Virus record (IMG/VR): IMGVR_UViG_3300008114_000018
Reading direction: 5' to 3' (one strand)
Length of the DNA: 64,000 nucleotides
Source of the DNA: an uncultured virus (IMG/VR IMGVR_UViG_3300008114_000018)
Taxonomy: Duplodnaviria > Heunggongvirae > Uroviricota > Caudoviricetes
Shown here: piece after piece, positions 28,991 through 49,081 of the stretch
Position numbering within the stretch: the stretch's first letter is position 1
Layout: each line of letters opens with the position of its first letter
Translations under genes and position numbers: made by a program
The notes under the pieces: model-generated
The model's database searches: none
Seen by the model: the letters and a program-made list of their open reading frames with translations, nothing else
What the model was told of the DNA's origin: nothing

Positions 28991-28999
28991 ATTACATCT

Positions 29000-29726: not shown

Positions 29727-29755
29727 ATTGACTCTATTCTAACAGTTAAAATTCT

Positions 29756-30982: not shown

Positions 30983-31040
30983 AATAGTATCCTCTACTAT
31001 TATTTATGCTTTAACGCAAAAAATCGTCAAATAGCTGCGT

Positions 31041-31280: not shown

Positions 31281-31356
31281 TGGGTTAGTCCTGCAGGAAT
31301 CGAACCTGCATCATTGCAATCGGAATGCAGTATCTTATCCATTAGACGAAGGACTA
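31281..31356 (-). tRNA. tRNA-Arg(CCG), slightly atypical 3' end
   Basis: TAGTCCT/AGGACTA acceptor followed by ACCCA; TTCGATT T-loop. Confidence 0.8.
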
Positions 31357-31360
31357 AAAT

Positions 31361-31434
31361 TGGAGCGGGTAGCGAGAATCGAACTCGCAAATAATCCTTG
31401 GCAAGGATTCAGGTTACCTTTACATCATACCCGC
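31361..31434 (-). tRNA. tRNA-Gly(GCC)
   Basis: Cloverleaf with CCA. Confidence 0.92.
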
Positions 31435-31442
31435 TTGAAACC

Positions 31443-33353: not shown

Positions 33354-33408
33354 GTTATTTCTCCTTTAATAAGCAAGATTACTTCAGTGCCCGATAGGCG
33401 CAACTGAG
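33354..33408 (-). promoter_or_regulatory. ROSE-like RNA thermometer in the dnaK leader
   Basis: UCUUGCUU pairs with AAGGAGA (the SD) around a bulged G; upstream hairpin CAGTTGC...GCACTG. Confidence 0.6.
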
Positions 33409-33451
33409 ATATGTATTTATACATTATTTTTACTAAAAATACAAATATATT

Positions 33452-33526
33452 TGGTAGCAGGAGAGGGATTCGAACCCCCGATAGCTTCCGTATGAAGGAA
33501 GTGCATTACCTCTTTGCTATCCTGCC
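33452..33526 (-). tRNA. tRNA-Met(CAT), elongator-like
   Basis: Cloverleaf; TTCATAC anticodon loop. Confidence 0.88.
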
Positions 33527-33774
33527 ATATACTTTCGTACATTTATTTGTTACAAGTAACAAATATATAACTTTATATGGAAATAGAATTTATTTCATTA
33601 TACAAACTCGGAGTAGGATGCATCCTAGTGAGGTATGAAGATATTATAACAATGGAGTACACTCCACTAGGATATACTCGTATTGAATTTGGGTACGGCG
33701 AACATCTTATTGTTGAAGAAGATATAATTTGTATAATGAAAAAAATTCAAGCAGCTAAAACGCTAAGTGAATAA

Positions 33775-33850
33775 TGGTGCCGCCTGTTGGTTACGCTCCA
33801 ACCTATCCGGCTCTTCAAACCGGCGCTTTCACTAGATTAGCTTAAGCGGC
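33775..33850 (-). tRNA. tRNA-Phe(GAA)
   Basis: All stems form; atypical T-loop AGCGTAA and D-loop. Confidence 0.8.
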
Positions 33851-33852
33851 AT

Positions 33853-33929
33853 TGGGGTGAAGGACGGGACTCGAACCCGCAACCACTGGATCCACAATCC
33901 AGGGCTCTACCAATTGAGCTACCAACACC
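33853..33929 (-). tRNA. tRNA-His(GTG)
   Basis: G-1 with C73; two U.U pairs in the acceptor stem. Confidence 0.9.
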
Positions 33930-34136
33930 ATTGATTATGTTGCACGCCATTCTACACGACCATACTGGTCTATATGTGCAATACTTTGCATACGTTTGAC
34001 TTCAACATATTCACGTTTCTCAGTAATAATTTCACCACCACGTTGTACTAATTCATTTACTTTAATCTTTGCTACAGAATTAATAGGTTCAAATTTTTTA
34101 AACTTGATCTCCATTTTACACCTCCGATTTATAAAT

Positions 34137-34238
34137 ATGTAGTGTAGCGGTTAATCTAGCACACAAGGATGCCAACGTAAAGAGTTTTCTAGATTTCCTC
34201 TATACCTAGTCGAAGGCCAAATTGTCGCTACACTACAT
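34137..34238 (-). ncRNA. ~100-nt element closed by a 13-bp terminal stem
   Basis: ATGTAGTGTAGCG/CGCTACACTACAT perfect inverted repeat; internal AATCTAG/CTAGATT helix. Confidence 0.55.
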
Positions 34239-34811
34239 CACAGGTCCATTACCATTTTTAAAACCAACAGTACCGCCTTCTTCTACAATACGTTTGATAA
34301 CTTCTTCAAACAATATAGGGCGATAATCTGTTTGTTCTACACAAACACAATGATATCTTGGGTCGATTTTATATTCACCGAAAATTTCTGCTTTAACTCT
34401 CTGATAATGCAGATGTCCATGAATATTAGTACCGAACCTTGCGAGACTATCTGTATGAATAGGAATATGACTTAATATCATTCCATTCATTACATGATAG
34501 CCACGAATATCTCTAAAGTATTCAGTGTATTCTTCTAATCTAAAAATGTCGTGGTTACCCTTAATAAGAACCTTATCTCCATTAAGCCTTGCTAGAGTTT
34601 TAAGTGCTTTACGATTAATCACAACATCACCGAGATGGTAAACTTTATCGTTTGGACGAACGGTTTCGTTCCAACGTTTTACCATTTCTTCATCCATCTC
34701 ATCTGGGTCATCCCAGGGTCTGAGTTTAGTTCCATCATCACGAAGGAACTTACAAACGCCAGCATGACCAAAATGCGTATCAGAAACCAAAAAGTTTGCT
34801 GGCATAGTCAC
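34233..34811 (-). CDS. Calcineurin-like metallophosphoesterase
   Basis: SDTH, GDVV, GNHD, SHIP, HGHLH motifs. Confidence 0.92.
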   Translation of the reverse strand: MTMPANFLVSDTHFGHAGVCKFLRDDGTKLRPWDDPDEMDEEMVKRWNETVRPNDKVYHLGDVVINRKALKTLARLNGDKVLIKGNHDIFRLEEYTEYFRDIRGYHVMNGMILSHIPIHTDSLARFGTNIHGHLHYQRVKAEIFGEYKIDPRYHCVCVEQTDYRPILFEEVIKRIVEEGGTVGFKNGNGPVM

Positions 34812-34856
34812 TCCTTAAATAAAAAAATTATAACACAAAAACAATTTACTGTCAAT

Positions 34857-34933
34857 TGGCACCCCAGGAAGGATTCGAACCTCCGACTCCTGCGTTCGTA
34901 GCACAGTACTCTAGTCCACTGAGTTACTGGGGC
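34857..34933 (-). tRNA. tRNA-Arg(ACG)
   Basis: Cloverleaf with CCA. Confidence 0.92.
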
Positions 34934-34942
34934 ATATATTGA

Positions 34943-35018
34943 TGGTGGGGGCTATGGGAATCGAACCCATTTAATCTACTATGTCATAGTAGCGACTAGC
35001 CATTCATACCTAGCCCCT
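34943..35018 (-). tRNA. Atypical tRNA-like RNA with GAC (Val) at the anticodon position
   Basis: Good T-arm and ACCA end, but A1.C72 mismatch, no proper D-stem and an anticodon arm able to pair down to a 3-nt loop. Confidence 0.6.
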
Positions 35019-35092
35019 CGCCGACCCGGGGTTTCCCTCCTTGCAGTCGGTGAAGTATTTATTGCCCAACACCATTAAAAATAAATACAAAA

Positions 35093-35794
35093 ATGCATAT
35101 ACATATATTTGGTCACAGCATTTGTGCCAGAGCAGGTTGGAAACATGACAAACCCGAACCTGATCTATTTGTTGATAGATTAATTAAAAAATATAATATA
35201 CCTAAATCAAACTATCACGCTGTTAATCAAGGCAGTGAAGAAAGAATATTATATTTTTTAAAAAAAGTTAAAAAGATTGACTTGGCGATAATCTTCCATG
35301 GCACTCCGCAACATTTCTTTTGTCCTGCGTGGTCTAGTGATTTTCATTTAGTAGACCAAGACAAATATTGGGAAAATGATTACCCCAGAGATTTGTATTA
35401 CATGCCTGAAATACTAAAAGATAAACCAAAAGAACCTAATCCTGATATAATATTAGATAAGAAAAATTATCAAAAATCATATGAAAATTTTGTAAAACAC
35501 TTTTATACACCTGAATTAAATCGCAATAGACACTATGGCGCATTAATTCAAATTGATCAATATTTAAATCACAAAAAAATACATGCAATTCATTGTGTAC
35601 TAAAAAACACATTACCAACTTGGTTCGAGTTTAGTAATGGTATAGTAGACAATGAACTTGCAGAGTTGCAAAAACAAAACAGTAAGTTCTATACCGGACC
35701 TCAAAACAGCGGCAATTTAATCAGTGAAGAAGGTAATATCTACATTGCTAACAAACTTACTGATTACATAGAACAATTAACTGGCTGGGGATGA
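35093..35794 (+). CDS. SGNH-like hypothetical protein inserted antisense in the tRNA array
   Basis: IHIFGHS N-terminus and C-terminal EEGN..IA; ATAAATA just upstream. Confidence 0.6.
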   Translation: MHIHIFGHSICARAGWKHDKPEPDLFVDRLIKKYNIPKSNYHAVNQGSEERILYFLKKVKKIDLAIIFHGTPQHFFCPAWSSDFHLVDQDKYWENDYPRDLYYMPEILKDKPKEPNPDIILDKKNYQKSYENFVKHFYTPELNRNRHYGALIQIDQYLNHKKIHAIHCVLKNTLPTWFEFSNGIVDNELAELQKQNSKFYTGPQNSGNLISEEGNIYIANKLTDYIEQLTGWG

Positions 35795-35857
35795 TGGACT
35801 CGAACCACCGAATGTCGGAATCAAAATCCGATGCCTTACCAACTTGGCGAATCCCCA
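35782..35857 (-). tRNA. tRNA-Gln(TTG)
   Basis: Cloverleaf with CCA. Confidence 0.93.
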
Positions 35858-36078
35858 ATTAACTTGGTATTACTTTTGGTATATACGGTACATTTCTAGG
35901 ACCATGTCTTTGCTCAAATAACATACGTGCTTCCTGTAAATCTTTAGCATAGACACGATCTTTAATATCACCTTGCGGTGTTCTTACTGTAGTTTCATAC
36001 ATTGGCATAACAAACTCCTTAGAGGTAAGAAAAGGTAGCTAAGCTACCCTTTTCATTATGTTGATTGAAAATCACTGA

Positions 36079-36150
36079 TTAGCGATTTGCAATGTACATA
36101 GTGATTTCAAAACCAAAACGCATATCAGTTGCACTAGGTGTTGTCCACAT
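36079..36150 (-). CDS. pqqA: PQQ precursor peptide (absent from the track)
   Basis: MWTTPSATDMRFGFEITMYIANR with ExxxY core; GGAG SD upstream; terminator-like hairpin at ~36030-36054. Confidence 0.92.
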   Translation of the reverse strand: MWTTPSATDMRFGFEITMYIANR

Positions 36151-36358
36151 GTTACTCTCCTTTGAATTTAAAATACATGTACTGCACATGTATTTAAGAG
36201 ATTGTACAACACAAAAATGGTACTGTCTATACGCATAGTATTGAACGATAGCTAGTGAAAATCATTAAACTTACCATATAGAAACACATTCCTGGATTGT
36301 CGTAAAACCCTCCATAGCCCCGAGCGCCATTATTTTTATATTCGAATGTGTTTTTATA

Positions 36359-36434
36359 TGGTAGGGGCACAGAGATTCGAACTCTGGACACACGGATTAA
36401 AAGTCCGCTGCTCTACCTACTGAGCTATACCCCC
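36359..36434 (-). tRNA. tRNA-Lys(TTT)
   Basis: Cloverleaf with CCA. Confidence 0.93.
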
Positions 36435-36729
36435 ATCATCTTTCGAGGTTTGTCGCTTTCCTTATTCATCTTTATCACCTTTATTTCTCATGCTTCTTGT
36501 TTTAGCACTTCTTTCTGAGGATTTGACTGCCTCACGAATGAAATGTCTTTCACGTTCCTTATTAAAACTAAGGATCGCAATAGCCTTTTCTGCTTTCTTT
36601 ATTTTTACTGCCTTTGGATCGTAACCCATATTAATCTCCTATTTAAAATTTCTATCAATTAATGCTAACAACCAAATAACTCCGATAATAACTGCCATTG
36701 CCCCATTGTAGTTCTCCTTATAGTTATAT

Positions 36730-36813
36730 TGGTGGGGTGTACTGGGATCGAACCAGTCATGTCAAAGACGGCGGATTTACAGTCCACTGCATCACCATTG
36801 ATGCTTCCACCCC
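36730..36813 (-). tRNA. tRNA-Tyr(GTA)
   Basis: Long variable arm, CCA. Confidence 0.92.
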
Positions 36814-36819
36814 ATTTAA

Positions 36820-37021
36820 TGCTCTGACAGACCTCGGAGGTAATTATACCGCATCAAGCACCGAGTAGTCTCAGTACCATCACACACGGCCTCCACCCTC
36901 TCCACGACAGGTCCCGTTCTCGCATTGCCAGCGCACTTTCGGTTTAAAGTGTACCACCCGTAGTTGTCATACTACTTCTCATCGTGCGGGTCACACTATC
37001 TGCTGACTAAGCAGAACGTTC
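36820..37021 (-). ncRNA. Structured ~200-nt ncRNA candidate between tRNA-Asp and tRNA-Tyr
   Basis: GC-rich, no plausible ORF, several hairpins. Confidence 0.6.
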
Positions 37022-37098
37022 TGGCGACACCAAGGGGGTTCGAACCCCTGACCTCCGCCGTGACAGGGCGGCATTCTAACCAGCTGAACTATGGTGCC
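37022..37098 (-). tRNA. tRNA-Asp(GTC)
   Basis: Cloverleaf with CCA. Confidence 0.95.
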
Positions 37099-37249
37099 AT
37101 TGTTCTACACTCTGCTACTAACTTACTTTTTACAATTGTTAATCTTTTATTCCAAACATACTCTGCATCTCTACATTCTTTTTCTGTGGCATACTTTGAG
37201 TATTGGGTATAGTTGTCAGGAAACTGTAACCAAAATACTAAAATCCAAG

Positions 37250-37714
37250 TCATCTCACACCCAAATAATGTTTGTTTACATAGCTTTGTATTGCTTGATG
37301 ACTTACATTACTGATATGCACGCCTGGAGCAACATTACGCCTACCTGAACTATCAAAGTAATTTCTTGTTTCTATACCATAGACACCATAGTTAACCTGT
37401 GCTGTATGATATGCACCAATTGTAACAATAGAGTAGGGCTTATGTTTTACGTTTTTTAAAACATGTTTAATGCTTTCTGCACCCTTACTATACCCATATA
37501 ACTGATACTGTTTATTATTTCTATTAATAAACTTTACTGCTAAATGTGCTTGATTCCAACTATATGTCATTGCACATGCATTCTGCTTTTTTGCATATTG
37601 ATTAAAGGCACGACTATCAAATAAATCATTGATACCTTTGAAACCAATAACGAACTTGTCACAGGCAAAACTGTTCTGTGTTACAAGTAATAAAATAAAA
37701 AATAATGTTCTCAT
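37250..37714 (-). CDS. Secreted alpha/beta-hydrolase-like protein
   Basis: Signal peptide; LYGYSKGA (GxSxG) nucleophile elbow. Confidence 0.6.
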   Translation of the reverse strand: MRTLFFILLLVTQNSFACDKFVIGFKGINDLFDSRAFNQYAKKQNACAMTYSWNQAHLAVKFINRNNKQYQLYGYSKGAESIKHVLKNVKHKPYSIVTIGAYHTAQVNYGVYGIETRNYFDSSGRRNVAPGVHISNVSHQAIQSYVNKHYLGVR

Positions 37715-37833
37715 ATTAGTTTTGTAGCCTATACTATATGCCTAACTCAACAGCTTTACACGTGTTTACTGTTTATTGTTTCGGTTACATAACGCCTGCG
37801 CCAGCCTCTGTGCTTACAGGCTACAAAATTAAT

Positions 37834-38053
37834 ATGCTTAGGCCACGCTTTTCCACGGTCGCCCCCAAGCTGGAGTTGTTGCCCTGTCCGAACACTAAAG
37901 GACCTTTGCCGCGTAGTGTCCACGCTGCTATGTTGTCTGAAACACCGGAGACACCACATCGAAATGCAGAGTCTATGTTTCGCTAAAGGTGCCATAGCCA
38001 CCTGGACTTTATCGTATTACCAAACGCTACTTTCAGGAAAGTAGTAACCGGAA
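37834..38053 (-). ncRNA. Structured ~220-nt ncRNA candidate, copy 2
   Basis: Shares a 17-mer and stem order with 27585-27780. Confidence 0.7.
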
Positions 38054-38303
38054 TCTTGCTTCTTTGATTCGGCGAGCTGTCCTACTTCAAGCAGGCTCAC
38101 ACTGGTCGCCCTGAGGTGAAGCACCTCAGTTACTCTAGATTAATATTAATGCTAACAAGGACAGGCCTATTACATGATACCGAAGGCATTACTGTATCAA
38201 ACCCTTGCTAAACTCTTTTCAGAGACAGAACGCACATTTTCTGTTTTGTTTTTAATCTTCATTTGCCGCTAGTATAACAGCAAATCGATTTATTGTCAAA
38301 CTT

Positions 38304-38380
38304 TGGTGCCTGCTCTTGGAATCGAACCAAGCACCCCCGCGTTATCAACACGGTGCTCTAACCGAATGAGCTAAGCAGGC
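38304..38380 (-). tRNA. tRNA-Ile(GAT)
   Basis: Cloverleaf with CCA. Confidence 0.93.
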
Positions 38381-38384
38381 AAAC

Positions 38385-38460
38385 TGGCACACCCAACCGG
38401 ATTCGAACCGGTGTATTCACCGTGAAAGGGTGATGTCCTAGGCCTCTAGACGATGGGTGC
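38385..38460 (-). tRNA. tRNA-Glu(TTC)
   Basis: Cloverleaf with CCA. Confidence 0.93.
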
Positions 38461-38532
38461 GTAAAACTGTTAAAGAACTAAAAATAATTCAGACATTTTA
38501 TCTCGTTTTGGATTTAATGTCAAGTTGTTGTT

Positions 38533-38608
38533 TGGTGGAGGTGACAGGGATCGAACCTGCGACCTACGGCTTGCAAAGCCGCCGCTCTCCCAACTGAGCT
38601 ACACCCCC
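38533..38608 (-). tRNA. tRNA-Ala(TGC)
   Basis: Cloverleaf, G3.U70, CCA. Confidence 0.95.
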
Positions 38609-38618
38609 AAATTAAATC

Positions 38619-38695
38619 TGGCCTGACCAGAGGGATTCGAACCCCCGACTTACTGCTTAGAAGGCAGTTACTCTATCCAACTGAGTTATGGTCAG
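38619..38695 (-). tRNA. tRNA-Arg(TCT)
   Basis: Cloverleaf with CCA. Confidence 0.93.
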
Positions 38696-38729
38696 AAAGT
38701 AATGATTGTACTATAACTGCGATTATTTG

Positions 38730-39635
38730 TCAAGCCTGAAGAATTGTATATTTGTCAATTTTCATTTTATCAATTTGTTCCAATATTTTTGTTGCTAAAA
38801 TTGCATTAGTTTCAGCGGTTAAGTGTATTGGACTTACTCCCCAACGGTGTCGAGGATCCATATAAACAAATTGATCGTCAAGTTCTACTACTGGTAAATC
38901 GCTTCCATGCTTTCTTTTAAAATGCTGAACCATAACATCTAACCAACGTAATACATAAGGTCCATTTTTAGGATCATTCATGAATCTGTAGTTGTGATAG
39001 AATGGTATGTTTTCTTTTAGATTTATTGTGTACGGAACAATTTTTTGCTTGCTAATGTAACACTTTGATGCTAGTTTTGTTTTGACTAAAATAATTCTGT
39101 CCTGAAACAGTTGTTTCATCTGTACAGCAAAATCAACTAACAACTCCTTTGTTCTACCCATTACTTCTTCGGTATCAAAATCAAAATAACATTGTGTTTT
39201 ACTAATAATATCTTTGTTTACCCAATCCACATCTAACAATTTGTGAAACTGGGGAACCAAACTAAAACATTCATTTTTAGTAATAAACCTTGTGTAAAGT
39301 TCATTGCTAAAATTGATCACCATAATGTCTGTAGAAACTACATTTTCTTTTAGAAATTTATAGTAAGGAAATTTTGTTAATTCAACATAAGCCTGATCAT
39401 ACAAAAAACTTTCATGAGGATGCTCAGGGTATTGCTCTTTCATATAGGTAAACATACGCTCAGCCATACTACTAGGCTGAGCGTACAGTGACATTAAACT
39501 TGTACCATGTGGAGGATACTTGTTTATTAAAACATTCCCACCTGCTAGGTCATATCTTCTAATTACACTTGGACTATGTAATGAATCCCATAAATCACAT
39601 GCACCAAAGTGAAAAATTCTAGGTCTTAAAATCAT
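38730..39635 (-). CDS. Hypothetical protein, possibly SGNH-like
   Basis: FHFGACD N-terminus; DPRHRWGVSPIH C-terminus. Confidence 0.55.
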   Translation of the reverse strand: MILRPRIFHFGACDLWDSLHSPSVIRRYDLAGGNVLINKYPPHGTSLMSLYAQPSSMAERMFTYMKEQYPEHPHESFLYDQAYVELTKFPYYKFLKENVVSTDIMVINFSNELYTRFITKNECFSLVPQFHKLLDVDWVNKDIISKTQCYFDFDTEEVMGRTKELLVDFAVQMKQLFQDRIILVKTKLASKCYISKQKIVPYTINLKENIPFYHNYRFMNDPKNGPYVLRWLDVMVQHFKRKHGSDLPVVELDDQFVYMDPRHRWGVSPIHLTAETNAILATKILEQIDKMKIDKYTILQA

Positions 39636-40189
39636 GTAAGAATTCTACTATGTTTCGGAACCCCGCTTAATAAGTATTCCATTTGATCCGCAAGAATGTT
39701 TCTATTTTGCAAAATCATACTTTCAAAGTGATTAGGTTCATAAGGCACATAAAGTAGTTCCATTCTTGCTTCTTTAAGTGTCTTATTATCTTTTTTGTTA
39801 TTACACGAAACACATGCAGTAACAACATTCATCCATGTATTTACTCCACCTCTACTTTTGGGTAGGATGTGATCTCGGCTTAAATGATTACTGTTAGAGA
39901 AATGCCCTCCGCAGTATGCACATACATGACGGTCACGTCCAAACAATGTTTTGTTTGTCAATGCAACTTTGCCGTGTTTAGCCGGATCGAACCCATGTCC
40001 TTTGATTGCAATGATACTAGGAGTTTCAATGTAACTCAAACGTCCGTCATTCTGAATTCCACCATGAAACTTTGCAACAACTTCACCTAGCGACCATGCA
40101 ACCATATCTTTTGCAAAATATGTGATTGCATTTTCGTGCGAAATCCATTGTCTAGGGATTCCGCCGATGTCCAACGCTAGTACCGACAT
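39632..40189 (-). CDS. HNH endonuclease (McrA/HNH_5 type)
   Basis: RD.HVCAYCG...SRDHILPKSRGG..W.NVVTAC..CN..K. Confidence 0.9.
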   Translation of the reverse strand: MSVLALDIGGIPRQWISHENAITYFAKDMVAWSLGEVVAKFHGGIQNDGRLSYIETPSIIAIKGHGFDPAKHGKVALTNKTLFGRDRHVCAYCGGHFSNSNHLSRDHILPKSRGGVNTWMNVVTACVSCNNKKDNKTLKEARMELLYVPYEPNHFESMILQNRNILADQMEYLLSGVPKHSRILT

Positions 40190-40220
40190 GATTTTCTCCT
40201 TAAAAGTTAAATGTATTTAG

Positions 40221-40461
40221 ACACTTTCAAATATAGTACTCATCCTCTTACATTCGGAGTGTAATGATGTTTCCTCTATGTCAAAAAGTGTATGGTAAAG
40301 CAAACTGATCCTATGTCATCGGTCATAGGGTTACACATGTTCATCAATTTGCTTTATCATTCCCGTTTTACTCTGCTGTTACCGCCAGCACTTTCATCAG
40401 GGGCTCCGCCCGTTCGCAGCATGTTTACAGTGCGCTGCTGAGACCTCGTTTCTCTCACACC
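40221..40461 (-). ncRNA. Three abutting structured elements downstream of a promoter
   Basis: Stem-closed units at 40221-40291 and 40292-40360, and a multi-stem unit at 40361-40461. Confidence 0.55.
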
Positions 40462-40469
40462 TAAACGTG

Positions 40470-40619
40470 TTAAGATTCTAACACGGTATTGTCTTTATTG
40501 TCAACCTTTTCGCTAAAACCATAGAATTCTCTAATCCTTTCAAACTTTTCAGTTATCAATTTGTTAAGTTGTTCTTCTGATAATATATGGTTGTCAATAT
40601 TATCTTTTTGATAATTCAT
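40470..40619 (-). CDS. 49-aa ORF directly after the attenuator terminator (absent from the track)
   Basis: GGAG SD; MNYQKDNIDNHILSEEQLNKLI... Confidence 0.55.
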   Translation of the reverse strand: MNYQKDNIDNHILSEEQLNKLITEKFERIREFYGFSEKVDNKDNTVLES

Positions 40620-40636
40620 TTTTTTCTCCATATAAC

Positions 40637-40877
40637 AAAAAACCCTGGGACTTTTTCAGTACCAGGGTTTAGATAATCTTACTATGAAACTTTACTTACC
40701 TAAACCCCCCAAGCCCTCAATAATATTGCGATCACTTGTTAAGGCATAAAACCCTACAGGTGACCAAACCATTAGTGTTGGCTGATTAAAGGATATATGT
40801 TTACAAGTTAAGTTTCTCATAGTAAATCTATTTAGTCCTGATGATAATATTGTACTATTTATCGCATTAAAATGCAA
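40637..40877 (-). promoter_or_regulatory. Putative leader-peptide transcription attenuator
   Basis: TTGCAT-17-TACAAT promoter, 42-codon ORF 40820-40692, 12-bp antiterminator pairing, U-tailed terminator 40637-40670. Confidence 0.7.
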
Positions 40878-41368
40878 GTTTTCATTTGCCCATTAATTCT
40901 TTTTAAAACTAGAACACATCATCTCAAAATCCTGTTGTCTGGACTGGATTTGACTATATGACGCTTTTGGGTTTCGTTCTCTGTACGAAGTTTTTTCTTT
41001 TTCAATACATTCGTTGTATGGATCGGAGCATCCCGCCAATGACATTAAAATTAACAATCCAATTAATATTGCTTGTAACATAATTTCTCCTACTCAATTA
41101 CCCATGGCCTAAAAGTTGTGTCTATTTTAATAGGCTTTTTGGGCTTCTCATGATTATTTATGACAACAACTTCGGGAATTTCATTGTTATAAAGTACAGA
41201 AAAACCAGTAAACTGATTGTCCTTAATGTTTGCTGTTATTTTCTGTACAGTTTTGCCAGTTTTATCTTCTACGTATTGTTTTAATATACCTTCAACTAGT
41301 TCCTTTGTGAGGGTGGAAGTACTCTCAATGACTATATCATCCATATATTTCTCCGTTATTAAGTGTAC

Positions 41369-41554
41369 TTATTCGCTAGAAATTTTGCCCCAATTAAATT
41401 TCAACCACAGTCTTTCATGTATGTAATGTGCTATGGTCATAAAGATGTTTATAACTATTGCTCCACTTAGTCCTGTCCATATTGCAGTAACCAATGTAGC
41501 TACGATTCTCCAAGTTATTGCTCTAATGATTGTTCTTTTGTGTGTTTCTGTCAT
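41369..41554 (-). CDS. DUF2061-like membrane protein
   Basis: ETHKRT..RA.TWR...Y.HER.W....WG. Confidence 0.75.
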   Translation of the reverse strand: MTETHKRTIIRAITWRIVATLVTAIWTGLSGAIVINIFMTIAHYIHERLWLKFNWGKISSE

Positions 41555-41568
41555 TGTATCTCCAAAAT

Positions 41569-41587
41569 AAAAGCCCCTTTCGGGGCT
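41569..41587 (-). terminator. Rho-independent terminator after ahpD
   Basis: AGCCCC-GAAA-GGGGCTTTT on the - strand. Confidence 0.8.
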
Positions 41588-41590
41588 ATG

Positions 41591-42109
41591 TTAATTACTC
41601 AATAACCTTGCTACAGAGGTCATAACCGCTGCTATTCGCCCTATATCTCGTAATTGTTCTACTGTATATCCTTCTTTTTTAAGTGTTTCATAATGTGCCT
41701 TAACACAAAAATGACACTTACCTACTATACTTGCTGCAAGACTATATGCCTCAAATCTTGCTTTGGTTGTACCACCATGCGTTGCAATCGCATTCATACG
41801 CAACTGTGCTGGCAAACCTTTTAATTGTTCATCATCTGCCATTTCAACATATGGATACCATACATTGTTTTGTGCCATAATACTAGCTGCTGTTAGTGCT
41901 GCATCAGCCTCTTTACGATCACTTAATTGGCTGTGAACCCATGTCCAAAATTTTGAATTGCCAGTTGCAAATGCTGCTGCAAGTGCCACTGCCTCTGCTT
42001 CTTCAACTGGTAACGTACTACGTTTAATTACTGCATCTATGTTTAGTTTTGTATCCTTAGCGTATTCAGGAATACTTTGTTCTTTTAATGCGTCTACCCA
42101 TGCTGTCAT
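41591..42109 (-). CDS. ahpD: Alkyl hydroperoxide reductase AhpD
   Basis: IPEYAKDTKLN...CHFCVKAH (CxxC...H). Confidence 0.92.
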   Translation of the reverse strand: MTAWVDALKEQSIPEYAKDTKLNIDAVIKRSTLPVEEAEAVALAAAFATGNSKFWTWVHSQLSDRKEADAALTAASIMAQNNVWYPYVEMADDEQLKGLPAQLRMNAIATHGGTTKARFEAYSLAASIVGKCHFCVKAHYETLKKEGYTVEQLRDIGRIAAVMTSVARLLSN

Positions 42110-42501
42110 TTTGTTAAAACTCCTAGTTGTCTATATCCTTTATATGTAGGATGGACCTTATCGGGAGATAGTTCAGGAATAATAATAAAAGTATCACCAA
42201 AATGTCTAGCAATTTTTTTAACCAACTCTTGTTTCTCTGGTTTAATTGCAGGTACTATCCAAAATACTTGATCTGAATTAACATGAGTTCTTAATGCGAC
42301 CAATTCTATTTCAGTGTTTAAGTTTTTAAAATCATTACTCCCTAAACTAATAATTGTAGTTTTGGCAGGCTTGATTTTTTTAACATATGCATCATTCCAG
42401 TCTTTGCTATTGATACCACTCTGAGCATAAGCCACGCACTCAGTACGTACTTGGCTTATACCCTTTGCTATGCTATCTCCTAAGATAAGGCACTCTATCA
42501 T
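42106..42501 (-). CDS. SGNH/GDSL hydrolase
   Basis: GDSI, GSND and DKVHP blocks. Confidence 0.85.
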   Translation of the reverse strand: MIECLILGDSIAKGISQVRTECVAYAQSGINSKDWNDAYVKKIKPAKTTIISLGSNDFKNLNTEIELVALRTHVNSDQVFWIVPAIKPEKQELVKKIARHFGDTFIIIPELSPDKVHPTYKGYRQLGVLTK

Positions 42502-43034
42502 TATAGTGTCTCGCCACCAACTGAACGGTTACATGCACATAATTCACCTGTTTGTAGTGCATCTAGTACACGCAATGTTTCTTCTGGGCTACGACCAACA
42601 TTTAGGTTATTAACAGTAACGTGTTGGATTACATTGTCTGGATCAACAATAAATGTTGCACGGAGTGCTGCACCTGCAGGGGCGTAGAAAATGCCAAGCT
42701 GATTGATTAAGCTTAGTTCACCGCGCTGTGTATCTGCAAATTGTACATGTGTAATTTTTGCTAGATCAGGGTGTGCTTTCTGCCATGCTAATTTGCAGAA
42801 TTCATTGTCTGTTGAACCAGTCAATAATACTGCATCACGGTCTTTGAAATCATTTGCCAACTTATCGTATGCTACGATTTCTGTTGGGCAAACAAATGTG
42901 AAATCTTTTGGGTAGTAAACGATAACTTTCCATTTACCTTCAAAACTTGTGTCGGTAATGTCAAAAAACTGATCACTACCTGGGTTGACGCCGGTTACGG
43001 CAAATTTTTCAATGGTATCACCAACTGTTTTCAT
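42501..43034 (-). CDS. ahpC: Peroxiredoxin AhpC
   Basis: YPKDFTFVCPTE. Confidence 0.95.
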   Translation of the reverse strand: MKTVGDTIEKFAVTGVNPGSDQFFDITDTSFEGKWKVIVYYPKDFTFVCPTEIVAYDKLANDFKDRDAVLLTGSTDNEFCKLAWQKAHPDLAKITHVQFADTQRGELSLINQLGIFYAPAGAALRATFIVDPDNVIQHVTVNNLNVGRSPEETLRVLDALQTGELCACNRSVGGETL

Positions 43035-43141: not shown

Positions 43142-44722
43142 ATGAGTGGATTAGCGTTTAACCCAAATGCATATGATATCGTGTTTTTAAGCTACGATGA
43201 ACCAAACGCCGACGAAAACTATCAGCATTTACTCTCAATAAAACCCAAAGCAAAACGTGTGCATTGTGTCAAGGGTAGTGACGCAGCGCATAAAGCCTGT
43301 GCGGAGTTAGCTACTACAGATAGAGTTGTAATTGTAGACGGTGATAACAAAGTTCTACCATCATTATTCAAACGTAATGTTTGGATAAAGCAAGGATATT
43401 TTGACTGGGATGATAAAGTTTTTAGCTATAGTAGTCTAAACTCAATCAATGGCACAAGTTATGGAAACGGTGGCGTTAAGTGTTGGCCCGTGGAAAAAAT
43501 TTTGGCTATGCGAACTCACGAAATCAGTGAGGATGAAAATGTAAGTGTAGATTTTGATTTTGATAGTTATCTACAATTGAACACTATCGGCAGTCATACT
43601 GTCGTTAATAGTAATCCATTACAAGCATGGCGTGCAGGATTCCGTGATGCAGTGAAGTTATTCATGAGTGGCAATGGTACGTTTGATGACGTAGATTGGC
43701 GCAATATGGATAGATTGTATAGTTGGATGCATATAGGTGCTGATGTTGAGAATGGATTATGGGCATGTTATGGTGCAAGATTAGGATGCTATTTGATACA
43801 GCGTGGTTATGACCATCATGAATTGTGCGATTTTGATAGATTAAATGATACATTTAAAATGTATTACGCAGCATCACACAATAACTTAGAAAAGGCATGC
43901 AATAATTTATCTATATTGCTTAATCATAGATATGTAGGTAAGGTGTTCAGTCCTGAACAAAGTATTGAATACAAAGAAAATATTAAACCACCTGTTCGTA
44001 GTCCTGAACATTTTGTAGCAGGGAATAAAGATCCTGAGTATGACATAGTTTTTATAAGTTATGATGAATCAAATGCTGATGAGAATTATGAAAAATTATT
44101 ATGTAGGTTTCCTAGAGCAAAAAGAGTACATGGAGTAAAAGGTATACACAATGCACACAAAGAGGCTGCATTGTTATGTTCTACTGATTACTTTTGGGTA
44201 GTAGATGCAGACGCAGAGATAGTAGATAGTTTTAATTTTGATTATGTTGTACCTTTCTTTGACTTAGCAAGAGTTAGAGTATGGCGTTGTAAGAATCCTA
44301 TCAATGATCTTGTATATGGATACGGTGGTGTTAAGTTGTTACCTAGATGTTTAGTAAATAAAATGGATGTTAACACTACTGATATGACAAGTAGCATAAG
44401 CAAACATTATGAACCAGTGCAAGAGTTAAGCAACATCACAAAATTTAACACTGATCCATTTACTACATGGCGCAGTGCATTTAGAGAATGTGTTAAGTTA
44501 AGTAGTCAAACTATTCAAGGGCAGGTATCACAAGAAACATTAGAAAGATTAGACATTTGGTGCAGTGTAGGTATAGATAAAGAATATGGCAAGTATGCTA
44601 TTCAAGGTGCCAAACAAGGTAGAGAATACGGTTTAGAAAACAAAAATAATAATGAAGCATTAAGAAAGATTAATGATTATAGTTGGTTAAAAGAATTATA
44701 TGAAAGAACAGTTAGCGTTTAG
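43142..44722 (+). CDS. Two-domain glycosyltransferase-like (GT-A) protein
   Basis: Tandem YDIVF.SYDE.NADENY...DxD (VDGD/VDAD)...GGVK...WR..FR. Confidence 0.7.
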   Translation: MSGLAFNPNAYDIVFLSYDEPNADENYQHLLSIKPKAKRVHCVKGSDAAHKACAELATTDRVVIVDGDNKVLPSLFKRNVWIKQGYFDWDDKVFSYSSLNSINGTSYGNGGVKCWPVEKILAMRTHEISEDENVSVDFDFDSYLQLNTIGSHTVVNSNPLQAWRAGFRDAVKLFMSGNGTFDDVDWRNMDRLYSWMHIGADVENGLWACYGARLGCYLIQRGYDHHELCDFDRLNDTFKMYYAASHNNLEKACNNLSILLNHRYVGKVFSPEQSIEYKENIKPPVRSPEHFVAGNKDPEYDIVFISYDESNADENYEKLLCRFPRAKRVHGVKGIHNAHKEAALLCSTDYFWVVDADAEIVDSFNFDYVVPFFDLARVRVWRCKNPINDLVYGYGGVKLLPRCLVNKMDVNTTDMTSSISKHYEPVQELSNITKFNTDPFTTWRSAFRECVKLSSQTIQGQVSQETLERLDIWCSVGIDKEYGKYAIQGAKQGREYGLENKNNNEALRKINDYSWLKELYERTVSV

Positions 44723-45695
44723 CGATATACCTTTCAATGACATTGTTAGATTTGGTCAGGCAACTATGCTTGATGACACACTGTTTTCTATAAGTTGGAT
44801 ATTAGGAAGATTTTGTAACTATAAATGCAGTTATTGTTGGCCATACGCAAGAAATGATACACCAGATCATCAAGAACTAGAAACATATTTAAAAACAATA
44901 GATGAAATAAAAAGACAAGCCAGACAAAATGGCTTCAATAAATTTCATTGGTCATTCAGTGGCGGCGAACCAACAGCGTATAAACATTTACTTGAATTAG
45001 TAAAGCATGTTGATGATGGACCTGGTACTCCATATCAAAGCATCCACATGACTACTAACTTAAGTCCTAGTAGGCGTTGGTGGAAAAATTATGCTGAGAT
45101 AACTAGCATGTTACAAAGGCGTAGTATCACTGCAAGCTTTCATGATGAGTTCGCAAAAGAAATTGAGTTTGGTGATAAGATATTACAATTAACCGAAGAT
45201 GATGTATTCGTAACTATTAATCAAGTTATGGTTCCGTCAAAGTTTTATGAGTTATACGAAAGATTGTGTCGTTTTGCAGCACGTGGAATTAATGTCACAC
45301 TCAAGCCACAAAGCGATCCTACAGCTAGTTTTGTAGTTGACGGATACAGTGAAGATATGATAAAATTAATGCGTGATGGCTTCCCTCAACATGCAAAAAA
45401 TCAAGAAGTAATGCAAGTAAAACTTATTGATAAAGATAATAAAGTTTGGTATATGGATCAAGCAGAAAGATTTAATGCGTTTGGTTTCAACAAATTTAAA
45501 GATTGGATGTGTAATTCAGGGTATCAAGGTTTAGTTATTAGAGAGAATGAAGTAAAACGAAGCTATAGTTGTAGAGATGAAATATTAGGGACATTAGACG
45601 GTGGATTTAAATTATTTGATAGTCCTAAAATATGTATCACAGACAGTTGTGTGAGTTCCGCAGATAGTAAATTACCAAAATGCAAATCGATTTAG
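44700..45695 (+). CDS. Radical SAM protein
   Basis: CNYKCSYC, SGGEP, C-terminal Cys cluster. Confidence 0.9.
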   Translation: MKEQLAFSDIPFNDIVRFGQATMLDDTLFSISWILGRFCNYKCSYCWPYARNDTPDHQELETYLKTIDEIKRQARQNGFNKFHWSFSGGEPTAYKHLLELVKHVDDGPGTPYQSIHMTTNLSPSRRWWKNYAEITSMLQRRSITASFHDEFAKEIEFGDKILQLTEDDVFVTINQVMVPSKFYELYERLCRFAARGINVTLKPQSDPTASFVVDGYSEDMIKLMRDGFPQHAKNQEVMQVKLIDKDNKVWYMDQAERFNAFGFNKFKDWMCNSGYQGLVIRENEVKRSYSCRDEILGTLDGGFKLFDSPKICITDSCVSSADSKLPKCKSI

Positions 45696-46270
45696 AACAC
45701 ATATTATTTTGGATGGATGCTATTCGCAATAGCGAAGATCCTAAACGCACTTTAGAAAGTTTCTGGAAAGGTCAGATCAAAAGCAAAGCCTGGCTGATAA
45801 GAGAAATGGGTGTGTTTATAGGTAAGCCAGTTACTATAGATATATTTGGTGGCTGGAACGGAGTGCTTGCTAGTATGTTGTTTCATGCTGCATATCCTGT
45901 AAAGTCTATTCGTAGTATTGACATTGATCCAAAATGCGAAGAAACTGCTAATACGATGAATAAGATTGAGCATATGGCGGGTAGATTTGTAGCAGTTACA
46001 GAGGATATGTGTGATTCTATTAGTGAGGCAGATGTAGTAATCAATACTAGTTGCGAACATATTTCTCAAGACCAGTACAAAAGTTGGCTAAATAGATTAC
46101 CTGCCAAAAGTTTGATTGTACTGCAAAGTAACAATTACCAAATAGATGAGCATGTACGGATAGCTAACACACTAGATGAATTCATTGAACAATCAGAATT
46201 AAATGTTTCATTTTCTGGTGAGTTAGAGTTACCATTGTACAAAAGATTTATGATTATAGGGAGAAAATAG
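45680..46270 (+). CDS. Class I SAM-dependent methyltransferase
   Basis: IFGGWNG, SIDID, INTSCEH. Confidence 0.75.
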   Translation: MQIDLEHILFWMDAIRNSEDPKRTLESFWKGQIKSKAWLIREMGVFIGKPVTIDIFGGWNGVLASMLFHAAYPVKSIRSIDIDPKCEETANTMNKIEHMAGRFVAVTEDMCDSISEADVVINTSCEHISQDQYKSWLNRLPAKSLIVLQSNNYQIDEHVRIANTLDEFIEQSELNVSFSGELELPLYKRFMIIGRK

Positions 46271-46803
46271 TGCTAAAAAAGGTTCACTTAGATTTTGACT
46301 TTAGTAAACTATTGTCAGCGGATTATACTCAGCACTGCGGTAGCTGTATTAAACATCAGGTTCATGAATTGAATGATATACATGAGCAATATGGTGGCTT
46401 CCCTGAATCATACTCGTTTGAAAATACTAAGATACATCAACTATGGTGGGATGATACACAAATAGATTATAAAGAATTGGGTGAGAAGTTAGGTATGGAA
46501 GTAATCACAGTGAGTACAATCATGCAGCCACCTGGTTGTACTGTGCCATTACACCGTGATACTTTTTATCAAATCAATACACGTTATCCAGATAGAAAAG
46601 AATTAAAAGTTCGTGCAAACATATATCTAGAGGACTATAAAATAGGTCAATTCATTCAATACCAAGAAAACAATGGCTATACAACTAGTGTAGATTGGGT
46701 AACAGGTGATGGCTTCATTTGGGATAGCGAAGTTTTACATTTAAGCACCAACGGTGGTATGCAAAACAAATATACAATGCAAGTGTCAGGATTTTTATTG
46801 TGA
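46270..46803 (+). CDS. 2OG-Fe(II) oxygenase-like protein
   Basis: PG..VP.HRD...H facial-triad pattern. Confidence 0.7.
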   Translation: MLKKVHLDFDFSKLLSADYTQHCGSCIKHQVHELNDIHEQYGGFPESYSFENTKIHQLWWDDTQIDYKELGEKLGMEVITVSTIMQPPGCTVPLHRDTFYQINTRYPDRKELKVRANIYLEDYKIGQFIQYQENNGYTTSVDWVTGDGFIWDSEVLHLSTNGGMQNKYTMQVSGFLL

Positions 46804-47831
46804 GATATCCAAGAAATTATACAAGCATTCACATAGAGTTAACAGACAAGTGTCAAGCAAGTTGTCCAATGTGCGCACGTAACTACAATGGTGGTGCTGA
46901 AAGACCCTTTGTTGGTCAATCAGAGATTACACTAGAAGATTTTAAACGTTGGGTAGATGTTGAGATATTAGAAAATTTATATTATTTTTACGCTTGTGGT
47001 AATTACGGAGATCCTATTATCGCTAAAGATTGTTTAGAAATTTTTAGATATGTTAGGGAAAATAGTGACACACGGTTGAGCATCCATACTAACGGTGGTG
47101 CAAGAAATACTAAATGGTGGCATGATTTAGCTGATGCAATGCGTGGCGATCATGAAGTTACATTTGGAATAGATGGATTTGCAGATAGTCATGTACTATA
47201 TCGTAGAGGAACTGATTATAATAAAATTATCGACAACGCAAAGGCATTTATTGATAACGGTGGATATGCTACAGTAGATACACTTATCTTCAAACACAAT
47301 GAAGATGAAGCTAAGGCATTCGAAGAAGAAATGCTACGTATAGGATTTAAATCTGTAAACTTCAAATCTACCCAACGTTTCTATGATATGGATAAGTTTC
47401 CTGTACAGGATACTAAAGGTAACTTAGAATATTATCTTGAACCTCCAACTAAAGAACCATTTAAAAGGATGAACTTCTTAAAGTTAGAAGATATTAGCAA
47501 AGATATTTCTATTTGGGAGAACATCGTTGCTACTACTAACGTTGATCCTAAATGTATGAATAAGAATGAAATTTATATTGATAGCAGAGGCAATGTACTG
47601 CCCTGTTGTTGGGTAGGTTCAGATATGCTTGAAGAACCGTTAGACGTAAGTTTAACTATTCATAATCTTAGAAACAAATTAGTAGATAACACAAAAGAAC
47701 ATTTTGGTAAGTTTACAGGTCTTAATTTAAATGACTTGCCATTAGATTATATTTTAGAAAGTGAAGCTTGGGCACTATTACATGATAAAGATATTAAGCC
47801 ATGGATATGTACTAAGAATTGTTCAGCATGA
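46800..47831 (+). CDS. Radical SAM/SPASM-Twitch protein
   Basis: CQASCPMC; C...YID..G.V.PCC. Confidence 0.9.
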   Translation: MRYPRNYTSIHIELTDKCQASCPMCARNYNGGAERPFVGQSEITLEDFKRWVDVEILENLYYFYACGNYGDPIIAKDCLEIFRYVRENSDTRLSIHTNGGARNTKWWHDLADAMRGDHEVTFGIDGFADSHVLYRRGTDYNKIIDNAKAFIDNGGYATVDTLIFKHNEDEAKAFEEEMLRIGFKSVNFKSTQRFYDMDKFPVQDTKGNLEYYLEPPTKEPFKRMNFLKLEDISKDISIWENIVATTNVDPKCMNKNEIYIDSRGNVLPCCWVGSDMLEEPLDVSLTIHNLRNKLVDNTKEHFGKFTGLNLNDLPLDYILESEAWALLHDKDIKPWICTKNCSA

Positions 47832-49081
47832 TTAATTTATTCTACGACAATTTAATTACAGGAAATGGTTCAAGTGAAATTGATAATCCAGTTCGCCCCA
47901 CAATTAGCATTACACACCATTTAACTCAGTTGGGCGTAGAATTCACAACTCATCAAATCAATTCAGAAACCAAACTAGACCACAATCAAACTAATTTATA
48001 CGTTATTGAATTAATGTATGGGAATAAGATTGATGAGATATTTAAAAATTTAAGTGAGCAGGCACTAACATTTTTACGCAATGACATAAAGCTATTAGTT
48101 TATTTTCCATATGAGGGTTTTGAACTCAAATTATACGAAAATTGGTTTTATAAATTACACAAAGGGTTTATAAACCATAATATCACTTGCAAAAAATACT
48201 TTGTATTTAATAACTTGTATATGGAAGACCATTACAAGCATTTTTTATTAGAAAATACGATAGGTGAACAGTTTCAATTCAACAACGTGTTCGGGTTCCC
48301 CTATTTTCAATTCGAATACTATCACACAGTAAAAGAACAAGTTGAAGAAGGACTTCCACAAGTTAAAGTAGAAAACCTTTTTAACAAAGATAAAGATTAT
48401 TTGTGCTTAAATTCTAAAATAAGAGCCCATAGAGTGTTTTTAGTAAGTGAGTTGGAACGTAGAGAAATAGAAAAAAATTGTTATCTAAGTATGATGGGTA
48501 GCACATTTAAGTACGACGAAACTACAATAGAATTTGCCAAAAATGTATTATCGCAATACATGAAAAACTCCGAGATGGTTAGTCAACCAATGATTGATGG
48601 GGTGCGTAAATACGTTGATGATTGGAAAGAACGACTTTTAGATAGTGATGCTAATAACTTAAACGACAGAGTATTAGATCCAAAATACTATGAGTCAAGT
48701 TTCTTCAGTATAGTAAGCGAAACTGGAATGAGTCATCATTTAAGATTGACTGAAAAGCCATTCAGAGCGATAGTAAACTATCACCCATATATTATTGTGG
48801 GATGTAACGGTACTTTAGAATATCTAAAGTCATTAGGTTTTGAAACTTTCCCTGAATTGTTTGATGAAAGTTATGATAATGAACCAGATATGGCTAAACG
48901 ATTATTAATGGTAATTAATGAGGTAGAAAAGTTTGTCAATCTTACATTCGACGAAAAAATGTCGAGATATAGAATGGTACACGATAAAGTATTACACAAC
49001 AGAGAAGTATTTTTTAATAAAGTCGCAGTTGATACTATTAATGACTTTAAAAAGATTTTTGAGTATATAAAAAATGACTGA
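47828..49081 (+). CDS. Putative glycosyltransferase (GT-B, fucosyltransferase-like C-terminus)
   Basis: SIVSET...LTEK..RAI....PYIIVG...LKSLGFETF..FDESYD. Confidence 0.55.
   Translation: MINLFYDNLITGNGSSEIDNPVRPTISITHHLTQLGVEFTTHQINSETKLDHNQTNLYVIELMYGNKIDEIFKNLSEQALTFLRNDIKLLVYFPYEGFELKLYENWFYKLHKGFINHNITCKKYFVFNNLYMEDHYKHFLLENTIGEQFQFNNVFGFPYFQFEYYHTVKEQVEEGLPQVKVENLFNKDKDYLCLNSKIRAHRVFLVSELERREIEKNCYLSMMGSTFKYDETTIEFAKNVLSQYMKNSEMVSQPMIDGVRKYVDDWKERLLDSDANNLNDRVLDPKYYESSFFSIVSETGMSHHLRLTEKPFRAIVNYHPYIIVGCNGTLEYLKSLGFETFPELFDESYDNEPDMAKRLLMVINEVEKFVNLTFDEKMSRYRMVHDKVLHNREVFFNKVAVDTINDFKKIFEYIKND

Follow-up and report, generated by a model that had tools for sequence, protein, structure and literature searches.

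Why would a phage place a promoter, a short open reading frame (ORF) and an intrinsic terminator, in that order, ahead of its non-coding RNA (ncRNA) and tRNA genes? The question is raised by an element on the minus strand of a 64,000-nucleotide (nt) stretch of an uncultured Caudoviricetes virus (IMG/VR record IMGVR_UViG_3300008114_000018), here called the window, at positions 40637–40877. A sequence-only reading of the locus had proposed a trp/his-type leader-peptide attenuator that senses a general failure of translation. Our analysis makes it probable that the element is a ribosome-dependent transcription attenuator heading the phage ncRNA/tRNA unit. The attenuator architecture is well supported; the function assigned to it, i.e. 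ribosome dependence, signal and direction of response, is deduced from sequence comparison and folding, and the identity of the sensed signal is pure inference.

The element in the window and its own clade

The element opens with a sigma-70-type promoter, TTGCAT-17-TACAAT, read from the sequence (−35 at 40877–40872, −10 at 40854–40849; minus strand, as for all parts of the element), whose spacing predicts a transcription start near 40842. The leader ORF has 42 codons, from an ATG at 40820 to a TAA at 40694–40692 (40692..40820). The longest reading of this frame begins at the TTG of the −35 hexamer and gives 61 amino acids (aa); ATG 40820 is taken as the start because the 61-aa extension is closed by stops in relatives. 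Over the last codons lies the 5′ strand of a putative antiterminator (GGGTTTAGGTAA, 40707–40696), referred to here as segment 2, with the stop codon beginning 1 nt 3′ of it. Segment 2 is complementary over 12 base pairs (bp), with a single G.U, to segment 3, the antiterminator 3′ strand (TTATCTAAACCC, 40676–40665), the last six bases of which are the beginning of the 5′ arm of the intrinsic terminator (40637..40670). The terminator consists of a hairpin (40670–40640) with a lower stem AAACCCTGG / CCAGGGTTT, an upper stem ACT/AGT and a GAAAA loop (9+3 bp, −16.6 kcal/mol), followed by six T to 40637. Promoter, 42-codon ORF (with the peptide exactly as quoted), U-tailed terminator and 12-bp alternative pairing had all been described in the sequence-only reading, and all are present where it had placed them. 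A consensus scan lists the downstream TTGACA promoters at 40504, 38733, 38523 and 38299 and misses both the leader promoter, the −35 of which matches the consensus at 3/6 positions, and the terminator, the stem of which has an internal mismatch. No paralogue of the element was found elsewhere in the window.

The pairing of segments 2 and 3 exceeds chance expectation. The duplex in the window has an energy of −15.3 kcal/mol, whereas dinucleotide-shuffled versions of the upstream 165 nt have a mean of −7.4, and only 2/2000 of them gave a duplex as good. The whole transcript folds at −66.4 kcal/mol (z-score −4.85), with the AUG region and the post-stop spacer joined in a long-range helix next to the terminator. 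In minimum-energy folds the 5′ arm of this helix (40806..40831) covers the AUG and the first codons, and its 3′ arm (40674..40693) lies within the antiterminator loop and shares a few bases with segment 3, such that the helix is a candidate anti-antiterminator.

Relatives were collected by scanning with the neighbouring small proteins and the leader peptide, and the clade set comprises 11 distinct variants over 290 nt, from viral and metagenome contigs. The counterpart of the window is a 366,837-bp metagenome contig; the G001 record is 100% identical over the region and hence of no use for comparison. A 16-nt pattern scan gave 119 loci, of which only 13 were true relatives, one of these being a new variant (L086). 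A 1.1-kb blastn query had no match among 50,697 phage records, and prokaryote genome contigs scanned with the peptide alignment gave 0 loci. A TTGACA-17-TATAAT or TATACT promoter is present in 10/11 clade variants, implying that the window copy is a weakened form of a real promoter.

A frame of 40–42 codons is open in 11/11 clade variants, one of which has an in-frame 3-nt deletion in the ORF. In three variants a 2-nt deletion in the G-run just 5′ of segment 2 shifts the frame, so that they end at a TAA inside segment 2 and the peptide tail GGLGK is replaced by GFR or GVR. As the peptide tail is altered and segment 2 is not, segment 2 is kept as nucleotides. (Segment 2 of the window also opens, at 40701–40707 on the minus strand, with an in-frame G_GGU_UUA, a −1 slippery heptamer pattern; the −1 frame stops two codons later with the same GFR tail as in the 2-nt-deletion variants, which is probably incidental.) For the window clade alone, the probability of a 41-codon open frame arising by chance is ~0.046 and that of its staying open through at least 52 substitutions ~0.069, with a combined chance of ~0.001.

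Segments 2 and 3 pair in 11/11 clade variants, two of them without the terminal A-U and one with a 1-nt deletion, and the sole internal change in the helix is from G.U to A-U. The lower stem of the terminator pairs in 11/11 variants, and its upper stem shows compensated changes among the aligned variants. As a separate observation, the top of the terminator hairpin in L049 (86–117) is the exact reverse complement of that in L032 (ACTTTTTGAGT versus ACTCAAAAAGT), which looks like a hairpin-loop inversion. All 9 clade transcripts have the long-range helix in their minimum-energy fold, and its core is paired in 11/11 variants at 7 positions; taken alone it is weakly above chance (93/2000 shuffles). 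RNAalifold, applied to the clade alone, where the sequences are 89% identical, finds 1 pair with a double change.

Distant relatives, covariation and predicted ribosome dependence

The element was searched for in five related virus records, with one terminator-like match, in G006. The sequence there is divergent and the layout alike: a promoter, a 34-codon ORF, a terminator and, 23 nt on, a GC-rich ncRNA, with the stop codon inside a stretch complementary to the 5′ flank of the terminator. A 17-nt invariant piece of the ncRNA, used as a probe, identified 48 loci, 27 of them with the ncRNA, and a peptide alignment of the new forms identified 15 more. The comparative set comprises 25 distinct DNA variants, 8 from the window clade and 17 others. 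In 25/25 variants there is an open ORF of 34–54 codons, and the terminator 5′ arm begins 20–35 nt past the stop (for L212 and L233, with the terminator call corrected from the automatic one); the terminators have a T-tract and energies of −12.8 to −16.7 kcal/mol.

All 17 variants outside the window clade have a TTGACA-17-TATAAT or TATACT promoter at the equivalent place, and in all 17 the −10 hexamer ends 6–10 nt before the ATG. The usual spacing between a −10 hexamer and the transcription start places the mRNA 5′ end shortly downstream of the −10. The short gap thus implies that these mRNAs would begin at or beside the AUG, i.e. that they are probably leaderless, and the missing Shine-Dalgarno sequence is then no objection to their translation. 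Variants of the window clade likewise have no Shine-Dalgarno sequence; they have 28–29 nt between −10 and ATG, and the extra leader (~22 nt) supplies the 5′ arm of the long-range helix. A second promoter, TTGCAT-16-TACTAT, lying over the ATG in 6/8 clade variants, was considered and rejected: it would start inside the ORF and is missing from the window.

The pairing was tested in 13 representatives, using a 16-nt span (8 nt on either side of the point where the terminator arm begins) against the ORF and spacer. Native duplexes have a mean energy of −16.1 kcal/mol, compared with −12.5 (standard deviation 2.6) for partners swapped among phages. None of the 13 partners surpasses the native one in five representatives (the window, L218, L189, L180 and L232), which include the three most diverged terminators, and in 11/13 at most two foreign partners are better, many of these being close kin with a GGGUUC-type arm. 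Covariation is apparent from the paired strands themselves, GGGUUUAGGUAA with UUAUCUAAACCC in the window, GGUCUUAGUUAG with UUAACUAAGGCC in L189, GGGUCUUAGAAUA with UAUUCAAAGACCC in L218 and GGGUUCUUAGAGG with UUUUUAAGAACCC in L233. In 10/13 representatives at most 6/1000 shuffles match the native energy (window 2, L218 0, L189 0, L187 1, L204 6, L180 4, L230 1, L232 0, L233 0, L237 6). The sequence-only reading had proposed the retention of the pairing in homologues as a check, and it is retained both in the clade, where 11/11 variants pair, and in the distant relatives, in which segment 2 covaries with the terminator arm.

The geometry of the stop codon is also conserved. The first base of the stop is offset from the 3′ end of segment 2 by 1 nt in the window, −7 in L218, −2 in L189, 7 in L204, 11 in L187 and L238, 12 in L232 and L233, 13 in L230, and 15 in L212, L179, L180 and L237, such that in 13/13 representatives the stop lies within segment 2 or at most 15 nt beyond it.

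Equilibrium partition functions were calculated for RNA cut just 5′ of the terminator 3′ arm, with the ribosome represented by a 28-nt mask (footprint −12 to +15 around the P site). For naked RNA of the 12 representatives predicted to be leaderless, the probability (P) of the antiterminator is 0.74–0.99 in 10/12 (0.41 in L212, 0.46 in L179), and it falls to 0 once the P site is beyond the codon after the Ser-Asp-Arg (SDR) motif. The window variant behaves otherwise: P is 0.00 for the naked RNA, 0.4–0.5 with a ribosome on codons 1–8, 0.2 at codon 9 and 0.00 at codon 30. Naked transcripts of the clade have P <0.25 in 7/11 cases, and removal of the 22-nt leader gives P ≥0.88 in 9/11. A trp-type 1:2 hairpin is therefore present in silico in the window clade and missing in the majority, which is predicted to be leaderless. 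The trp/his-type logic proposed in the sequence-only reading stands in part. The terminator/antiterminator architecture, with the stop on the antiterminator 5′ strand, is conserved and covarying, but most relatives are probably leaderless and have no predicted 1:2 hairpin, and in the window variant a ribosome stalled mid-ORF does not free the antiterminator.

These observations suggest a mechanism in which a host-type strong promoter would drive a short translated ORF, the last codons of which (segment 2) could pair with segment 3, including the terminator 5′ arm. If segment 2 were free while the polymerase makes segment 3, the antiterminator would form and transcription would continue through the small ORF and the ncRNA to the tRNA genes. 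A lead ribosome that is by then at the ORF end would instead cover segment 2, in which case the terminator would form and transcription would stop. Fast translation would thus shut the unit, and slow or failing translation would open it. In most relatives, with an mRNA starting from the AUG or next to it, the antiterminator would be the default fold. In the window clade, the ~22-nt 5′ leader and first codons would pair with the post-stop spacer as a trp-like anti-antiterminator, and naked RNA would consequently terminate.

The position of the terminator with respect to the genes behind it also bears on this mechanism. In 6/15 loci the 5′ motif of the ncRNA lies 23–31 nt past the T-tract, and the terminator-ncRNA interval has no sigma-70-like promoter in 4/4 abutting loci scanned; in L218 no promoter besides that of the leader was found over the stretch that includes the ncRNA and three tRNA genes. 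The placing of a strong promoter and then a strong terminator right before a promoterless conserved RNA gene argues that the terminator is conditional. The ncRNA would be the ancestral target of the attenuator. In the other 9/15 loci a ~50-aa ORF related to that of the window intervenes (gap 192–220 nt). Genes for tRNAs lie within ~350 nt past the ncRNA motif in 8/9 loci scanned, and also upstream in five; in the exception, the window locus, the ncRNA is separated from the tRNAs by an HNH gene and a 301-aa ORF. The placing of the element at an ncRNA/tRNA block, made from the window sequence, is thus borne out in relatives, both by the tRNA genes near the ncRNA and by the loci in which the ncRNA follows the terminator directly. 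The accompanying caveat, that independent downstream promoters could limit control to the adjacent 49-aa ORF, is right for the window, where the scan lists such promoters: the attenuator there would directly gate the 49-aa ORF only, and read-through would add to the output of the ncRNA, HNH and tRNA units.

The leader peptide and rival explanations

A profile search of 5.8 billion clusters (E ≤0.001) retrieved 58 proteins of 40–88 residues (55 of them of 40–61), all unnamed or ‘hypothetical’ and some on contigs of 306–374 kb. The consensus of 52 aligned clusters is M(M)QNT..HSLK.QQP.LG..AYWS..A....NSDRTPEI..GV.EGDGYA, in which W (codon 19 in the window) and D (codon 30) are invariant, R (codon 31) is near-invariant, and H, Q, L, Y, S, R and E are each present in at least 90% of the clusters. 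The invariant W is kept between clades that share 21–36% identity. The QP...W...DR pattern picked out in the sequence-only reading is thus the signature of a conserved family of 40–63-aa peptides, and its observation that the leader has no run of one amino acid holds throughout the aligned peptides, none of which contains a single-amino-acid run. Conserved residues are encoded by synonymous codons, including both serine codon families (Ser TCA 6, TCT 8, AGT 2; Asp GAT 16, GAC 7; Arg CGC 19, CGT 4), which argues that selection acts on the peptide. Searches of Pfam, PHROGs, NCBIfam and PADLOC with the leader peptide and its three small neighbours returned 0 families. A clade-only profile run against 1.84 billion representatives returned its own cluster, one repetitive spurious match and nothing else, and the ESM Atlas gave no lead (best score 0.78). 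AlphaFold2 models made with 11 and 52 sequences are without secondary structure, with predicted local distance difference test (pLDDT) scores of 52 and 58. A type I toxin was rejected as a candidate, the peptide not being hydrophobic and an antisense promoter not being evident.

A general sensor of translation does not need a conserved peptide family, and in this respect our model differs from that of the sequence-only reading. For the conservation of the peptide, the main point that our model leaves unexplained, either programmed pausing at the Asp-Arg codons or a function of the peptide in trans may account. As a tentative extension, to which we give a minor share of our belief, the leader may be a sequence-specific arrest peptide, the ~30 residues from HSLK to NSDRTPE lying in the exit tunnel and holding the ribosome at the Asp-Arg codons (40733–40728 in the window), with read-through into the ncRNA/tRNA genes responding to a specific cue that relieves or strengthens the pause. 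Beyond the Asp-Arg codons, a ribosome would no longer leave the antiterminator strand free. Candidate cues would be a small molecule or the supply of particular charged tRNAs once host tRNAs have been cleaved or have decayed. TnaC and SecM are nascent-chain arrest peptides, and TnaC acts via Rho rather than at an intrinsic terminator. The invariant Trp of the leader family lies 10–14 residues before the conserved Asp-Arg pair, a spacing that may resemble the Trp-to-stall-site spacing of TnaC and SecM; the likeness drawn is one of spacing, and, unlike TnaC, the phage leader precedes an intrinsic terminator.

The conserved peptide also invites a reading in which no ribosome-dependent switch exists. 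The ORF might be an ordinary gene for a trans-acting micro-protein, the terminator a leaky one that ends an upstream operon, and the pairing of segments 2 and 3 a ribosome-free means of tuning basal termination or mRNA stability. Such an arrangement would fit the full-length conservation of the peptide in 52 aligned clusters and the synonymous codons at its conserved residues, as well as the lack of a terminator between the upstream 62-aa gene and the leader unit and the independent downstream promoters in the window. It leaves unexplained, however, why in 13/13 representatives the stop lies in segment 2 or within 15 nt past it, why segment 2 covaries with the terminator, and why a promoter and terminator stand 23–31 nt ahead of a promoterless conserved ncRNA; that 52 sequences yield no predicted fold (pLDDT 58) is weak evidence in the same direction. 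We regard this arrangement as unlikely. In another reading, the element might be a self-contained promoter-terminator unit producing a trans-acting small RNA of ~200 nt, in which the frame is incidental, the AUG being sequestered in the full-length fold and no Shine-Dalgarno sequence being present. The frame is nevertheless open in 25/25 variants that share as little as 21–36% peptide identity between clades, and this, together with the synonymous codon usage and the small combined chance of the open frame (~0.001) within the window clade alone, makes a small RNA very improbable.

A further alternative is an RNA switch, in which a protein, small RNA, tRNA or metabolite would choose the fold and translation of the ORF would be secondary. 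The ends of the window-clade RNA close a helix round a nearly invariant 48-nt core, in a riboswitch-like P1 layout with a 3′ strand overlapping the antiterminator, and the body of the window RNA is stabler than its shuffles (z −3.4). Yet the closing helix is missing in the majority that is predicted to be leaderless, the body z-scores (terminator excluded) of the clade vary between −3.4 and +0.3, core changes disrupt predicted internal helices instead of preserving them, conservation across clades is at the amino-acid and not the nucleotide level, and no Rfam family matches. A switch of this kind is consequently judged improbable, and the ribosome-dependent attenuator is the reading that we favour.

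A number of observations weigh against that attenuator. The transcription starts, and with them the predicted leaderless state, are placed by promoter spacing alone. No Shine-Dalgarno sequence lies at working distance in the window variant, where an AGGA is 15 nt from the AUG. The folding probabilities describe thermodynamics and ignore kinetics, and where the stop is 11–15 nt past segment 2 a masked ribosome at the stop leaves segment 2 free; in these clades the block at the stop may be steric, in that the helix could not close round a bound ribosome. Pairing is weak in L212, matched by 89/1000 shuffles, and in L238 (31/1000), as it also is in L179 (21/1000), and L212, for which nine foreign partners are better than the native one, and L179 (four) are the exceptions to native preference. 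The ratio of nonsynonymous to synonymous changes (crude pN/pS) of the leader frame is 0.57, compared with 0.55 in one wrong frame and 0.44 for the neighbouring 49-aa gene. Conservation of the whole peptide is not required by a plain attenuator and suits a trans-acting micro-protein. With respect to the genes controlled, the downstream units of the window have their own promoters, as perhaps do those of other loci: L187 and L189 have a promoter-like 10/12 match inside the ncRNA and L233 has one after it. RNA contigs from four runs, over 38600–42200, lie on the HNH gene and on the 49-aa ORF, and none extends over the leader, a result that is uninformative on expression.

Downstream genes, genomic setting and known attenuators

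The 49-aa gene (40470..40619, minus strand), an optional member of the module, has a GGAG at 40629–40626 and starts at ATG 40619, which is the second ATG; comparison with relatives gives 49 codons, not 53, and there is no promoter between this ORF and the terminator. Its product carries the motif L(T/S)xEQxxKLIxxK(L/F)(D/E)R and belongs to a small family that matches no known family. Relatives are encoded at 9/15 loci, including L179, L180, L188, L204, L230, L232, L234 and L237, and are missing from six. The ncRNA follows on the same strand (~40468–40230, its 3′ end being approximate), behind a promoter TTGACA-18-TAGAAT at 40504–40475, the two together spanning 40230..40504. It is present in the window, L218, L187, L189, L212, L204, L179, L180, L230, L232, L233, L234 and L237, and its invariant blocks are AACGAGG, AA(C/T)GGGCGG and (G)ATGAAA, after which come a 5-bp hairpin (loop GCGGTAA) and AGTA. 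A search of 18 kb of the window and nine related loci against Rfam 15 (E ≤1) returned tRNAs and chance matches only. A 6S-like RNA was considered in view of a long hairpin, and rejected since there is no Rfam match and the structure is not conserved (z −3.4 to +0.3). An inverted repeat at 40466–40485 (CGTGTTAGAATCTTAACACG, 7-bp arms) lies over the −10 of the ncRNA promoter and looks like the operator of a dimeric repressor.

The tRNA block extends over 27131–38695 on the minus strand, with 24 tRNA genes identified by ARAGORN, to which Rfam adds three tRNA-like matches (30457–30543, 33778–33850 and 36733–36813). Among the tRNAs are HNH genes at 30500–30982 and 39632–40189, and within the block (31446–33353, minus strand) is a gene for a 636-aa DnaK (Hsp70) homologue that is ~67% identical to proteobacterial-type DnaK in phage records. 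An operon upstream of the leader (41591–43034, minus strand) comprises genes for an AhpC/TSA peroxiredoxin and an AhpD-like CMD protein together with a short GDSL-like ORF, and ends at a bidirectional terminator (41572–41587). Elsewhere in the window are a cluster of seven ORFs matching radical-SAM families (44700–53682), adjoined by a 526-aa ORF (43142–44722) with a weak, sub-threshold glycosyltransferase match, and a sigma-like gene at 22718–23422. A box, NTAAATAN, followed 4–7 nt on by an ATG, precedes at least nine ORFs of 42–526 aa that have no Shine-Dalgarno sequence (e.g. at 1259, 6570, 35081, 43130 and 54396 on the plus strand and 54393, 28716 and 40835 on the minus strand), against ~0.3 such placements expected by chance from a rough base-composition estimate. 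With a longer gap, the box also occurs before two tail-fibre genes (plus strand, 7474 and 9668), and relatives carry it within the spacer of their leader promoters. It is a candidate for a phage-specific (late-type) promoter or start signal.

Leader-peptide attenuators head a number of enterobacterial amino-acid operons, i.e. trpL, hisL, pheL, thrL, leuL and ilvL. The phage element is similar to these with respect to its promoter-proximal short ORF, the strand shared between antiterminator and intrinsic terminator, and a stop placed so that a terminating ribosome covers the antiterminator 5′ strand; in the window clade only, it is also similar in having an upstream strand that sequesters segment 2, such that naked RNA is predicted to terminate. 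Unlike the enterobacterial leaders, it has no codon run and encodes a conserved peptide of 34–54 residues (in the DNA variants), most phage members appear leaderless and without the 1:2 hairpin, so that their naked RNA would read through, and the genes controlled are a phage ncRNA and tRNAs rather than biosynthetic enzymes.

Parallels to the separate features of the element can be drawn from other bacterial systems. Leaderless short ORFs with polycysteine act in mycobacteria as cysteine-responsive attenuators (bioRxiv 10.1101/834739) and, like the phage leader, form a short first cistron that sets the expression of the genes behind it; they are bacterial and have a cysteine run, and the likeness drawn is one of layout. 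Antibiotic-responsive, ribosome-mediated attenuation has been described upstream of ABCF and other resistance genes (PMC8546547, PMC12421871). There a slowed leader ribosome reportedly frees the antiterminator, so that the state of translation, not one amino acid, is reported, as is proposed for the phage leader; the stall in those systems is drug-induced at specific leader codons. In Sinorhizobium, both the leader peptide (peTrpL) and the terminated RNA (rnTrpL) of the trpL attenuator are reported to act in trans (PMC7298713, PMC6614838), a precedent for attenuator peptides and terminated RNAs having functions of their own. By analogy, a trans function of this type could explain the conservation of the phage peptide. 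Among the titles and abstract openings listed by our searches of open-access text, none described an attenuator with a leader peptide, either in a phage or ahead of tRNA genes.

Three conserved and as yet unnamed elements, i.e. the 58-cluster peptide family, an ncRNA family without an Rfam match and a ~50-aa protein, co-occur on contigs of giant lake phages that reach ~370 kb. Arrays of tRNA genes are common in large phages, and their regulation is largely obscure. If the leader does act as an arrest peptide, it would constitute a phage sensor linking the state of host translation to phage tRNA supply. If our reading is right, an attenuator at the head of the array would form a feedback loop, giving more tRNA and ncRNA when ribosomes lag, and would offer a testable handle on why phages carry tRNAs.

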